Assembly: GCA_951406725.2 (NCBI GenBank)
Contig: OX597833.1
Span: forward strand, 47,306,001-47,370,000
Length of the DNA: 64,000 bases
Direction of reading: 5' to 3'
Source: Octopus vulgaris
Lineage: Eukaryota
Below are positions 14,326 through 63,635 of the stretch, piece by piece. Numbering within the stretch: the stretch's first letter is position 1; each line of letters starts with the position of its first letter. The notes beneath the pieces were generated by a model. That model had not been told where the DNA came from. It saw only the letters and a program-made list of their open reading frames with translations, and searched no databases. A program made the translations under genes and the position numbers.

Positions 14326-16581
14326 ATGTCTGAATTCGATACTGCTTCAGCTGTTATCGTGGACAGCGGCGGTCAGGATTTGAAGTACAACTTCCCCGTG
14401 CATGTACTCATTGAAGAACCACCTTCAAGTGAGTGTATTGACCAAGATGATGAAGATTCCCTGATGCCTTTCGGGGGTAATGGAGATTTTTCAAACTACC
14501 AAACAGCTACCCATAATGGCCACGTATCCGATTCCTTTTTATACCAACAGACCCACTACTATTTACCACAGAATGAAATATCGTCTCTATATGAAATGGC
14601 AAGACGAGAGAGTCTCTACGAACATGGAGATCAGTCTGACTATGGTTATGATGAGTTCAGTATTCCAAACGGAAAGCACGACTATCAGTACCAGGAGAAT
14701 GAAGATTCTTCGGTAGATCAGAAGGACAAAACCATCGTCTCTGGTGTTAACCATACAGCCAGTCACGGCCATAATCATAAAGCAGCCCGAGCTTGTGAGT
14801 ACTGCAACATGAGTTTTGCAAGTACCGATGACCTCGCGCTGCATATGCGAGTTCATTCGGGTGGTAAGCCTTATTTATGCCAACAGTGTGGTAAGACTTT
14901 TAGTGATAGCTCAGCCCTGGCAAGTCACGTGAAGTCCCATACTGTCGAGAAAAGATTCAAGTGTGACTTCTGTGGAAAAGCGTTCACCAGGAACAGTAAC
15001 CTCAGTGACCACATGCGCACACATATTGGCAGAAAGCCGTTCAAATGCGAGACTTGCGGGAAACTATATGCCTTGGAAAACAACTACAATGCTCATATGG
15101 AAACTCATGCCAATGACAAACCTTATAAATGTGATATTTGTAATGTAGAGTTTACCAAACGCAACCTACTCATTTCACACATGGACGGCCACAACAAGGG
15201 CCGTTGCTTTGAATGTCAAAAGTGCCCTAGAAAGTTTGTCACTACGGGGGAGCTTGATTCACATATGAAGTCTGTGCACCCAGAAGCTGTGCCAATAAAG
15301 GACATGTCCGATAACAGTAACTCCCGTTTGAACAATCATGCAGACAACGGTGTTGGTAAAGACGGCAGCGCTCTCAACGACATTGTGCAGCGAGATAGTT
15401 CTGGTAATATAATAGGCCAAATTAGTAGCCCCGTAGTAACTACAACAACTAATGAGAAGAAGAGCTTCCCGTGTGACATTTGCACCAAGTCCTTTACTCG
15501 TCGTAGCAACCTCACCCAACACAAGCGTACCCATAGTGGGGACAAGCCGTATAAGTGTGAGTACTGTGGGAAAACATTTGCAGTGAATAGTAATTTGACT
15601 ATACACATAAGGATGCATACAGGGGACAAGCCTTACAAATGCTGTTTCTGCAGCAAAACTTTTATCGTCAATTCGCATCTCACTGCACACATTAAGTCTC
15701 ATACCACCGATAAGGTGCACAAGTGTGACTACTGCGGCAAGACGTTTCTGCATGCGTGCGACCTCACCGTGCACGTACGTACACACACCGGCGAGAAACC
15801 GTACAAATGTGTTTACTGCGGTAAAGCCTTTGCCCGCAGTAGCCATCTCACTGACCATGTCCGTACTCACCAGAGTGACAACGACTGCAAATGCAGCTTC
15901 TGCGGTCAAGAATTTGACCACCCCGATACGCTGGCGCAGCACGTGAAAACCCACAAAGCGGAAGGTGACGACAGCAGTTCCCTTAGCGAGGCCCCTACTT
16001 TGGCCGTGACGCCGACCCTTGTGCCACAACACTTTCATCATCATCATCATCCTGTGCAACAAGCGCAGCCTCAGCAGCACAAGCATCAGCTGCTCCAGGC
16101 ACAGCAGCAGCACCAACACCAACACAAACCTCAATTGCAACAGCAGCAGCAACATCATCATCATCATCATCAACAATTGCAACAGCAGCAGAAACAACAG
16201 CCACAGCACCAGCAGCAACAGCAGAAAATTCAATTACAGCAGCAGCAGCAACCACAGCAAAAACAGCAACCGCTGCAGCAGCAGCAGCAACAACAACAAC
16301 AGCAGCAGCAGCACCATCACCACATCCATCAGCATCAGGACACATCATCTCGAGTTACGACAACTGCTGCATCGATGCCCCAACCCCTGTCTCAAGAAAT
16401 GTTAAAAGTTGGTGTCGGTACCGGTGCCGAAAACCACACTGACCACCATCACCAGCATCATAACCAGCAGCCACAGCAGCAGCATCAGCATCACCATCCT
16501 CATGGTCATCATCATCATCAGCATGTGCATTTCCATCATCATCATCATCAACCTCATCAGCACTCAGATCCTAAAGTTTAG
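14326..16581 (+). CDS. C2H2 zinc-finger protein, 751 aa: acidic N-terminus, 12 fingers in two arrays of six (~14791-15279 and ~15466-15954), Q/H-rich C-terminal tail
   Basis: Twelve CxxC-x12-HxxxH/HxxxxH motifs with TGEKP-like linkers (SGDKP, TGDKP, TGEKP). Uninterrupted ORF. An in-frame TAA at 14263-14265 upstream fixes the ATG at 14326; TAG stop ends at 16581. Confidence 0.96.
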   Translation: MSEFDTASAVIVDSGGQDLKYNFPVHVLIEEPPSSECIDQDDEDSLMPFGGNGDFSNYQTATHNGHVSDSFLYQQTHYYLPQNEISSLYEMARRESLYEHGDQSDYGYDEFSIPNGKHDYQYQENEDSSVDQKDKTIVSGVNHTASHGHNHKAARACEYCNMSFASTDDLALHMRVHSGGKPYLCQQCGKTFSDSSALASHVKSHTVEKRFKCDFCGKAFTRNSNLSDHMRTHIGRKPFKCETCGKLYALENNYNAHMETHANDKPYKCDICNVEFTKRNLLISHMDGHNKGRCFECQKCPRKFVTTGELDSHMKSVHPEAVPIKDMSDNSNSRLNNHADNGVGKDGSALNDIVQRDSSGNIIGQISSPVVTTTTNEKKSFPCDICTKSFTRRSNLTQHKRTHSGDKPYKCEYCGKTFAVNSNLTIHIRMHTGDKPYKCCFCSKTFIVNSHLTAHIKSHTTDKVHKCDYCGKTFLHACDLTVHVRTHTGEKPYKCVYCGKAFARSSHLTDHVRTHQSDNDCKCSFCGQEFDHPDTLAQHVKTHKAEGDDSSSLSEAPTLAVTPTLVPQHFHHHHHPVQQAQPQQHKHQLLQAQQQHQHQHKPQLQQQQQHHHHHHQQLQQQQKQQPQHQQQQQKIQLQQQQQPQQKQQPLQQQQQQQQQQQQHHHHIHQHQDTSSRVTTTAASMPQPLSQEMLKVGVGTGAENHTDHHHQHHNQQPQQQHQHHHPHGHHHHQHVHFHHHHHQPHQHSDPKV
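16027..16563 (+). repeat. Coding trinucleotide repeats (CAG/CAA/CAT/CAC) encoding poly-Q and poly-H runs
   Basis: Directly visible; two Q/H blocks separated by a ~35-aa unique spacer (DTSSRVTTTAASMPQPLSQEMLKVGVGTGAEN). Confidence 0.95.
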
Positions 16582-60378: not shown

Positions 60379-60424
<46 letters not shown>

Positions 60425-60425
<1 letters not shown>

Positions 60426-60865
60426 ATAATACAAAATAAGAAAATGGAGGAATAGATTTCTTTCAATCATCAACTACTACATAATACCAATTCATATAAT
60501 ATATTAACTAATTATTTAGGAATATCCAGATCAAACAGAATAATACAGAATAAAACAGTACACATCAATAAGACGAGGCCCTGAGATATATATATAAGTA
60601 ACTTATTTTTAACTGTATATTACCTCAATACAACTGACTAATATGAGCATAATGAGATACTCTTATCTACAGGCTGAAACAGCTGTAAGATCCATTTTAT
60701 ATGTATTGTTCTTATGGTATTATCTTACTTATTGATGTGTACTGTTTTATTCTGTTTGATCTGGATATTTCTAAATAATTAGTTAATAAATTATATGAAT
60801 TGGTATTATCTAGTAGTTGATGATTGAAAGATATCTATTCCTCCATTTTCTTATTTTGTATTATG
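60425..60865. repeat. Long inverted repeat (~140-bp arms 60425-60572 and 60728-60865) around a ~155-bp spacer
   Basis: CATAATACAAAATAAGAAAATGGAGGAATAGAT...ACAGTACACATCAATAAG versus CTTATTGATGTGTACTGT...ATCTATTCCTCCATTTTCTTATTTTGTATTATG. Confidence 0.92.
60645..60692 (+). ncRNA. Degenerate hammerhead-like motif in the spacer of a long inverted repeat
   Basis: ATAATGA-GATACTCTTATCT...GAAA-CAGCTG-TA-AGAT; the same GAAACAGCTGTAAG 3' half as the 62658-62703 motif, with a decayed 5' core. Confidence 0.4.
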
Positions 60866-61065
60866 AATTTGAGGTAAAACATTTTACCTTCGCCCATATA
60901 ATACATTAAATGAATTAATTGCATTGCAATTCTTAGCATTTATGTATTAGCCTCTCTGGGTACTTTACTGGCAGTATATTGGATAAATGATATCCCATAG
61001 TGGGTTACACTCATAACCCCTATCTCACTTTGTAATATATAAAAACATAAATATATATATAATAG

Positions 61066-61400: not shown

Positions 61401-61447
61401 AGATATAAAAATATATATATAAACACACACACACATACATATATATA

Positions 61448-62370
61448 CAGGGTGTGGGGAATAAGTTGCTGTCTAAATTATGCAAAAATGAAAATAACAC
61501 TGACATCTTATTTTAACAGATATATTTACCAAAATTACATAAAAATATCTTGAAATACTAAAGAATAAATTTATTCAATAAAATCGCCATTGGCTTCAAC
61601 CACTGCTTCCAGACAACTTCAGAATCTCCTTGTTTAACTTGGTGAGAGCTGCCATAATCCTTGCCTTCAGTTCATCTTTGATGTTACAAGGAGTTTTGTT
61701 GGTCTCTTGCTCCACACATAATAACGAAAGAGGTTGCAGTCTGGGGAGTTAGGTGGCCAGATGTTAGGGATGATGTGGTCGCAGAAATTGTCTGACAGCC
61801 ATGACTGGGTTCTCCTGCTTGTGTGGCATGTTTCCAGATATAGGGTCTTCCAGCAGCCACCTTCTTCATCCGGGGCAGTGCTACCTCCTCCAGGCACTTG
61901 ATGTAGGCCTCTGTGTTGAGTCTGAGGCCAAGTGGGAAAAGCGGAGGTATAATGTCACCATCGTTAGTGATCACTCCAAGTACCATGATGTTGACTGGAT
62001 GTTTGATTTTTATCACTCATGGTATATATTTTCGGGACATGGCATGCCAACGGTTGTTCTGTGTGTTCACCATCTGATCCTGGCAGAAATTTTTCCCGTC
62101 TGAGAAAAACCAAAGCATGTTTAGTTGAAGAGGATGCTTGAGTTTGTTCAAAAGCTTCCTAGCATGGTCTTTCCTCTTGCCCTTGATAGGCTGGGAATGA
62201 AAATTGGCCCTTTCTCATCTCGTATGAGGAACATTGAATGTCTTCATGCACTACCTACCTGATAAGAAACTCACACTCCCATGTCCCTGGCAAAGGACCT
62301 GATTGACTTGGAGGGAGTGTTGTTAATCATAGCCTGGATATCACCAACAAATTCAGTTCTTTTCTTAACC
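61448..62370 (-). mobile_element. Decayed Tc1/mariner transposon (maT/DD37D-like)
   Basis: KHPVNIMVLGVITNDG, YIKCLEEV, WPPNSPDCN..YYVW, WFFSD motifs; TA-CAGGGTG terminus at 61446-61454; frameshifted. Confidence 0.88.
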
Positions 62371-62458
62371 TGGATTCATTAACGTTTTTTTGCATTCCTG
62401 GACTTCTGAGCATTTGCTTATGTCTGTGACATAGATATTTAAAAATATGTGTTCATAT

Positions 62459-62519
62459 AGAGTCTGACGAGCTGTCCTCAAGGCTTTAGCTTTGTGGGTG
62501 CAAAACCTTGGGTAACTCT
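62459..62519 (+). ncRNA. Type I hammerhead ribozyme-like motif (G12 mutated)
   Basis: AGAGT-CTGACGA-[GC...CCTCAAGGC TTTA GCTTTGTGG...GC]-AAAA-CC TTG GG-TA-ACTCT: 5-bp stem I, core box, long stem II, stem III, GUA cleavage triplet. GAAA reads AAAA, consistent with CpG decay. Confidence 0.7.
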
Positions 62520-62542
62520 TTGTCCAAGATAAAAAATTTTTG

Positions 62543-62589
<47 letters not shown>

Positions 62590-62657
62590 CAAAAACAGAT
62601 AACAAAGACAAGGCTGTGAAGAGTTTTCAGGACATTTATAAGGAAAGAGAAAGTTAG

Positions 62658-62703
62658 CCTTACAGCTGTTTCTGAAATATTAGGGATATCCCTTCATCAG
62701 AGA
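62658..62703 (-). ncRNA. Minimal type I hammerhead ribozyme-like motif
   Basis: Minus strand TCT-CTGATGA-A[GGGATAT CCCTA ATATTTC]A-GAAA-CAGCTG-TA-AGG: intact core boxes, palindromic stem III typical of Penelope-associated minimal hammerheads, 3-bp stem I. Confidence 0.7.
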
Positions 62704-62832
62704 TGATGTGAGAGAGGTAAATGTTTGTGTTTGAAGTAAGGAATTATTATGGAAAAGGAGGAGATAGGGAAATAGAGGGAAATAAGAGAATGAAAGTAGA
62801 AATAACATAAAACATTGTAGATGCAGTTCCAT

Positions 62833-63089
62833 TATTCAAGTAAAGTGGTGTATAGAAGTGGTAAAAAAGTTTCCTGTACATGGTATATAAGTTCCGATAG
62901 TAGTTCGTATTTATCATTTCAAAGTATGGAGCCATGGATTCTATATTACCCATTCAAAGGGGCTTTGTGGGCAACACAGAATCCACAGCTCCATACTTTG
63001 AAATGACTAAACACGAACTACTATTGGAACTTACATACCGTGTACAGGAAACTTTTTTTACCACTTCTATACACCACTTTACTCGAATA
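62833..63089. repeat. Fold-back palindrome, ~120-bp arms
   Basis: AGTAAAGTGGTGTATAGAAGTGGTAAAAAAGTTTCCTGTACA...TCATTTCAAAGTATGGAGC mirrored by GCTCCATACTTTGAAATGA...TGTACAGGAAACTTTTTTACCACTTCTATACACCACTTTACT. Confidence 0.93.
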
Positions 63090-63635
63090 TACACTTTAGA
63101 TGAGTTGTAGTGCACCTGAGCACTGTACACAATTATTATTATTATTATTATTATTATGGAACTGCAAGTACAATATTTTACATACAACAGACTTCTTTCA
63201 GTTTCTGTCTACTAAATCATCTCACAAGGCTTTGGTAGAAGACATCTGCCCAAGGAGCCACGCAGTGGGACTGAACCCAGACCCATATGGTTGGGAAGCA
63301 AGCCACTCAAGTATAAATTAGTAAAATAAGGTGGTGAGCTGGCAGAAATGTTAGCACGCCGAACGAAATGCGTAGCCGTATTTCGTCTGCCGTTATGTAT
63401 GTCCTGAGTTCAAATTCCACCGGGGTCGACTTTGCCTTTCATCCTTTTGGGGTCGATAAATTAAGTACCAGTTATGCACTGGGGTCGATGTAATCGACTT
63501 AATCCCTTTGTCCCCTCTGTGTTTAGCCCCTTGTGGGCAATAAAGAAATAAGTAAAATAAGATTCTATAGAATCTAGGCACATCAACATGCAGGATGCCA
63601 GAAATGGCTAGGTACAAACCCCATTTATGTTCTTT

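Follow-up and report, generated by a model that had tools for sequence, protein, structure and literature searches.

Known hammerhead-bearing elements

The closest described relatives of the elements considered here form the Hydra clade of Penelope-like elements (PLEs). In the passages of PMC8557442 used here, the clade is defined by RWK, DKT and CxCX5C motifs, by loss of CCHH, and by CxxC/CxH around conserved E and N; its members carry canonical hammerheads, insert into (TA)n, are generally shorter than 3 kb, and include the octopus element Hydra-1_Obim. A hammerhead in an octopus Hydra element, Hydra-1_oBim, has already been published in the same source (Craig et al. 2021, PMC8557442).

The minimal PLE hammerheads of Cervera and de la Pena (2014, PMC4209133), as far as the cited passages go, cleave weakly and in a dimer-dependent manner. 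They resemble the motifs of our locus in a stem II of 7-8 bp, a short stem I and a palindromic stem III, and in being mostly solitary in truncated PLEs (PMC4209133). Opposite-strand pairs 100-700 bp apart have been noted in Schistosoma (PMC4209133); unlike these, the opposite-strand pair described here consists of two different families, which we call A and B. Minimal PLE hammerheads also show one bulged base before G10.1-C11.1 (PMC4209133), whereas in B the base of stem II carries an A.A mismatch; a similar mismatch is seen in the published Hydra motifs (PMC8557442).

Two further systems are comparable in part. Metazoan non-LTR retrozymes (Cervera and de la Pena 2020, PMC7229834) share with our families a type I hammerhead, multiple copies and low GC content, but are described there as non-coding tandem repeats of 150-450 bp, while A and B encode RT and GIY-YIG endonuclease (EN), and no short tandems of them were seen. 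The Poseidon element PAc of the green anole (Frangieh et al. 2024, PMC11167929) has a 3' "tail" on some copies only, as A and B have short and long 3' ends; according to the cited part of that study, it belongs to a clade different from Hydra, and its hammerhead overlaps the ORF start.

Two hammerhead motifs at one TA tract

In the analyzed 64-kb stretch of octopus DNA (the window), the initial annotation had described two convergent, ribozyme-like motifs of the minimal type I, Penelope-type design, the plus-strand one lacking G12. Both motifs are there, of this design, on opposite strands and facing each other across a gap of 138 nt that includes the (TA)20 tract, and an A indeed occupies position G12 (Table 1). 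The window A copy has a stem I of 5 bp, compared with 7 bp in most family A copies, and the family B stem II, with the mismatch at its base, has 7 bp. BLAST alignments of the window A fragment to other copies begin at 62366 and stop at 62540-62544, so that the fragment ends at the short 3' end of family A; the window B copy is of the short-3'-end type as well.

Table 1. Features of the locus (window coordinates)
Feature	Position	Strand	Details
Tc1/mariner-like remnant	61428-62367	-	one terminal repeat; TA-rich tract at flank
Family A fragment	62366-62544	+	5'-truncated 3' UTR, no coding part
Family A type I hammerhead	62459-62519	+	long stem II; UUG loop on stem III
Family A stem I, 5' strand	62459-62463	+	
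Family A core CUGACGA	62464-62470	+	
Family A position G12	62502	+	A in the window copy
Family A stem III	62505-62513	+	predicted cut after 62514
Family A stem I, 3' strand	62515-62519	+	
(TA)20 tract	62546-62585	none	common to 3' ends of A and B copies
Family B fragment, main arm	62586-62960	-	5'-truncated 3' UTR; left boundary exact, right approximate
Family B minimal type I hammerhead	62657-62704	-	intact core; loop-less palindromic stem III
Family B core CUGAUGA	62700-62694	-	
Family B GAAA	from 62672	-	
Family B stem III palindrome	62669-62662	-	predicted cut between 62661 and 62660
Inverted second arm of family B insertion	62968-63089	+	stops short of hammerhead
Short repeat fragment	63087-63157	none	(ATT)n end; interrupts inverted B arm
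Inverted B arm, continued	63153-63180	+	whole inverted arm spans 62968-63180

The remark that such ribozymes are easily missed by annotation also proved right, as none of the 62 Rfam matches to the window at E<=10 belongs to a hammerhead family, all of them being noise from microsatellites and hairpins. Single-sequence folding gave z-scores of -0.5 to -1.5 (not significant). A strict descriptor applied to the 64 kb detected only the minus-strand motif (0 matches in 20 shuffles); its G12-free version still missed the plus-strand motif, with a mean of 0.2 matches per shuffle, and a looser descriptor found the plus-strand motif only. Support from the window by itself is thus modest to weak for both motifs, and it is the family evidence that confirms both as real.

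Conservation of the hammerheads within families

The DNA search of the octopus's own genome produced 43-44 matches per motif, most of them at 82-92% identity. The relatives have common 3' ends and staggered 5' ends, which is the pattern of retrotransposons. An exact 14-mer over the A stem III occurs 131 times in the genome (8 matches for controls), and the one over the B-type stem III, 14,584 times (18 for controls).

After removal of the window copy and of duplicate loci and arms, 36 of 45 rows remained for A and 41 of 48 for B. Non-CpG differences are rarer in the core than in the flanks both in A (3.7% vs 9.0%, 36 copies, p=0.0008) and in B (2.9% vs 7.1%, 41 copies, p=0.0002), although misalignment in low-complexity flanks may inflate this contrast. 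All 11 core positions are intact in 17 of 36 A copies and 29 of 41 B copies. The type I core (CUGANGA, GAAA and UH, with stems I-III) is present in the family majorities and in the window B copy, while in the window A copy it is broken by G12A.

Pairing was counted for A in the window copy and 27 of the 36 copies, selected by pattern (the 9 dropped were truncated or rearranged), and for B in the window copy and 16 short-stem B-type copies from 45 sampled; in both families the selection fixed stem III. With this selection, 85% of cells pair in A, compared with at most 46% when the strands are slid, and 93% in B, compared with at most 53%. Of the two signals expected by the initial annotation, conservation of the core over the flanks is seen in both families; stem covariation is only slight in A, and B shows none. 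In A there are 11 double-change cells (23 of 500 shuffles score as high), mostly from one sister subfamily, namely, stem I A-U to G-C (4 rows) and stem II C-G to U-A (3 rows), that is, few independent events. In B there is a single double-change cell, and 446 of 500 shuffles score as high.

The A sister subfamily (L158, L162, L169, L171, L174) keeps stem III unchanged; its stems I and II carry compensatory changes, and its 3' tail differs.

Coding elements of families A and B

Upstream of the hammerhead, in both A and B, the sequence leads into GIY-YIG endonuclease, a CxCX5C linker and RT. The proposal of two distinct hammerhead-bearing retroelement families stands, both families being multi-copy and a copy of each ending at the one (TA)20 tract, but their description as protein-less has to be abandoned, since the motifs are parts of the 3' UTRs of Hydra-clade elements encoding RT and GIY-YIG. 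Every A and B copy seen is interrupted by stops or frameshifts. With an intact 636-aa database protein, the alignment extends from RT to EN in both long A copies and in three of four long B copies; in the fourth it covers RT and the post-RT region.

Family A has two complete pLTR-ORF-pLTR copies, L194 and L195, with a period of ~2790 bp, which is within the length of less than 3 kb typical of the Hydra clade; L187 is likewise counted among the full-length relatives. A single ORF with RT and C-terminal GIY-YIG is seen in L187, L188, L194 and L195, the RWK and DKT motifs in L194, and the CxCX5C linker before EN in L064, L065 and L069. (TA)4+ lies within 136 nt downstream of 25 of 38 A copies, compared with a background of 18%. 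Among 42 A copies, 15 have long, 11 short and 16 unclear 3' ends (copies L143-L182 and L005, L011, L026 cover A and B); the tail of the long 3' end can fold into a hairpin. A 91-bp tandem unit, suggested by the 19-nt direct repeat 62441/62532 flanking the plus-strand motif, was rejected, since other copies reveal it to be the TA tract together with two distinct stretches of the A 3' UTR.

Family B has a 3' UTR of 1.2 kb, owing to which its length probably exceeds 3 kb. Copies L183 and L185 span RT to EN, and 7 of 14 B EN loci (L073, L076, L078, L080, L082, L083, L085) continue into the hammerhead, ~1.2 kb after the stop and closer in L078; the same continuity is seen in L193. The latter overlaps L183 by 857 bp at 80%, and the link between RT and hammerhead in B is through this overlap, as no single B copy spanning both was found among those retrieved; neither was the N-terminus with RWK and DKT recovered. 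The CxCX5C linker precedes EN in L075, L076 and L097. Pfam gave a sub-threshold GIY-YIG match for one B protein only and none for the RT pieces. Proteins of A and B are 30% identical in RT and 35% in EN. Of 29 B copies, 21 terminate at (TA)3+. The tail was detected by pattern in 4 of 29 B copies, with a short TA run between the short end and the tail. There is a direct partial tandem in L097 and an inverted arm in the window, the latter being a usual PLE structure.

Two observations concern the surroundings of B copies. The segment L082:439-888 (minus strand), which adjoins a B copy, belongs to a different PLE clade, being a GIY-YIG fragment of the CCHH type. The region C22:13923103-13931730 (L191, L192) is a recent host tandem duplication with a ~2.86 kb unit (95-99% identity), four units of which carry one intact B hammerhead each; these four hammerheads, 2.86 kb apart, were considered as a tandem PLE array, and this was rejected, the duplication having no ORF.

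Placement in the Hydra clade

In the EN alignment both A and B have CxCX5C, YIGS and CxxC..E..N..E..CxH and lack CCHH, in contrast to the fragment in L082. Judged by motifs and by-eye comparison, A and B are Hydra-clade C-terminal EN+ Penelope-like families. They resemble Hydra-1_Obim, as given in the cited part of PMC8557442, in the domain order, CxCX5C, absence of CCHH, CxxC/CxH around E and N, RWK and DKT (in A), the (TA)n target, and the position of the hammerhead near the 3' end; the RT of A is ~60% identical to that of Hydra-1_Obim over ~147 aa (counted by eye), a similarity that also points to an octopus-like host. The hammerhead sequences of A and B both differ from the motif listed for Hydra-1_oBim. 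Family A further differs from this element in its long stem II and in an insert rich in Thr and Asn that follows the linker, and B, being distant (see its identity to A above), in the long 3' UTR and the loop-less stem III. The Hydra motifs shown there for coral, anemone and acorn worm have the four stem III pairs of B, but with a 2-nt loop (PMC8557442).

Neither family was found in the literature on octopus PLE hammerheads or cephalopod hammerheads, where Craig et al. (2021) and a paper on a twister came up; Repbase or Dfam may hold them. The main text of the 2026 octopus repeat annotation, in the part consulted, mentions no hammerhead, ribozyme or Hydra, and its supplements may contain A or B (PMC13282606). 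We suggest that A and B are new families within the known Hydra clade.

State of the window copies and neighboring repeats

Position G12 of family A is a part of a CpG: the C11.1-G12 dinucleotide in 38 A copies is CG in 16, TG in 10, CA in 9 and other in 3. Loss of G12 in the window A copy is hence ordinary CpG decay. The window B copy is degraded too: one pair of stem I is gone, and wobbles have arisen in stem II. Its hammerhead fold comes to +1.3 kcal/mol with an MFE of -10.1, compared with -7.4 and -10.9, respectively, in the intact copy L116. Both window ribozymes are probably inactive. The A copy diverges from its family majority by 12.8%, and the B copy by 6.1%, which weakly suggests that the A insertion preceded that of B.

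To the left of A, the remnant that we class as presumably Tc1/mariner-like, from a WPPNSPD-type motif in the translation, is cut off at the TA overlap where the A copy starts, while its other copies extend past 62367. The missing remainder is absent from the window and the next 6 kb, and deletion of target DNA during the insertion of A may have caused the truncation. The fragment interrupting the inverted B arm is, we assume, SINE-like. Directly to the right of this arm, at 63179-63554, there are two more high-copy short repeats, which we also take to be SINE-like. Farther away, at 16102-16559, the window contains runs of the trinucleotides CAG/CAA and CAT, possibly an exon encoding poly-Gln/poly-His.

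Origin of the motifs and alternative explanations

We consider it well supported that the motifs are 3'-UTR hammerheads of two Hydra-clade PLE families, and that the window holds decayed, 5'-truncated and probably inactive copies of these, likely inserted independently at one (TA)n. By analogy with what is published for other PLEs, the GIY-YIG endonuclease would nick AT-rich DNA, and RT would prime there within the RNA of the element, at a point 3' of the hammerhead, which would explain why even the shortest copies keep the ribozyme. A model with AT-rich nicking and internal RT initiation, the latter leaving the 3' tail on part of the copies, is given in the cited part of the anole PAc study, where hammerhead cleavage was dispensable for insertion in vitro and was protein-assisted (PMC11167929). 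In the source elements, the hammerhead might process a tandem precursor RNA, either by dimerizing via its palindromic stem III, as in B, or assisted by protein.

That both motifs are chance look-alikes in repeat sequence might be thought from the lack of Rfam matches, the insignificant folding z-scores, the miss of one motif by each of the two descriptors, and the absence of covariation in B, but this hardly agrees with cores kept intact and stems pairing far above the slid alignments throughout the families. Moreover, the place of the hammerheads after the EN stop matches that of published Hydra hammerheads, and the same core and stem III are found around unrelated stem II sequences, which makes coincidence extremely improbable. 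Protein-less retrozymes, that is, short non-coding hammerhead elements mobilized in trans, would account for the window copies, which are 3' UTRs without an ORF, with no RT or EN found within the window or 6 kb beyond it, and for the fact that most retrieved copies are short 3' fragments. Nevertheless, the same 3' UTRs continue unbroken into GIY-YIG and RT in longer copies, and the 5' ends are staggered rather than fixed. The two same-strand repeats studied more closely are a full coding element and a host tandem duplication, with 2.8-kb periods instead of 150-450 bp units; no head-to-tail repeats of the latter size were seen in the retrieved copies or among the listed match positions. We therefore regard a retrozyme origin as very unlikely.

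The convergent pair could also be a functional unit, e.g. a bidirectional self-cleaving cassette or a heterodimeric ribozyme, as the motifs face each other at a short distance and the arrangement recurs once. However, A and B motifs cannot be in one RNA, since they are on opposite strands and no transcript has both in sense; cross-pairing of A and B stem III is estimated at -0.6 kcal/mol, compared with -8.2 and -11.1 for self-pairing, and neither the G12-less A copy nor the poorly folding B copy favors such a role. A convergent B-type motif within 400 nt occurs at one (L044) of 62 other A loci, compared with ~0.9% expected per tract; this expectation is a rough estimate, from 36 (TA)n tracts in the window scaled to the genome, i.e. 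~0.009 exact B-type motifs per tract, and the recurrence fits chance. We thus see almost no room for a functional unit: the pairing is ordinary, no function is predicted for the head-on arrangement, and a shared preference for (TA)n targets likely placed the two PLE families in one repeat.

Two probably dead insertions at a shared target matter little by themselves. They add two octopus-type Hydra families not encountered in the literature searched, show how a coding element, once truncated, may be mistaken for a retrozyme, and point to families with intact natural hammerheads, including 42 identical B copies, suitable for asking whether Hydra ribozymes cleave as dimers.

Stem III shared among families

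Several unrelated hammerhead families keep an identical loop-less palindromic stem III, with stem II ranging from 21 to ~100 nt. The B stem III forms no hairpin alone, but its self-duplex is the stronger of the two given above. Among 45 sampled B-type matches, 26 have an upstream core and stem I of at least 3 bp, 11 have a core with a weak stem I, and 8 have no core; the stem II segments of the 26 are very different in length and sequence. Family RNAs could, in principle, activate each other as cross-family dimers, so that Hydra elements and their parasites would cleave in trans by a shared dimerization code, though we consider this unlikely.

Across the genome, the B-type 14-mer is common to several families whose stem II and flanks show no relation to each other (copies L103-L142). 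Core position 4 is C (CCGANGA) in 8 of 17 aligned B-type hammerheads (L106, L108, L110, L111, L123, L124, L130, L137), apparently fixed in a sister subfamily. The window itself contains a third hammerhead-type insertion (60430-60880) that shares its stem III palindrome (plus strand, near 60677) with B; its stem II is long, its core is interrupted at a fold-back joint, and its inverted arms start at (TA)n 60389-60422.
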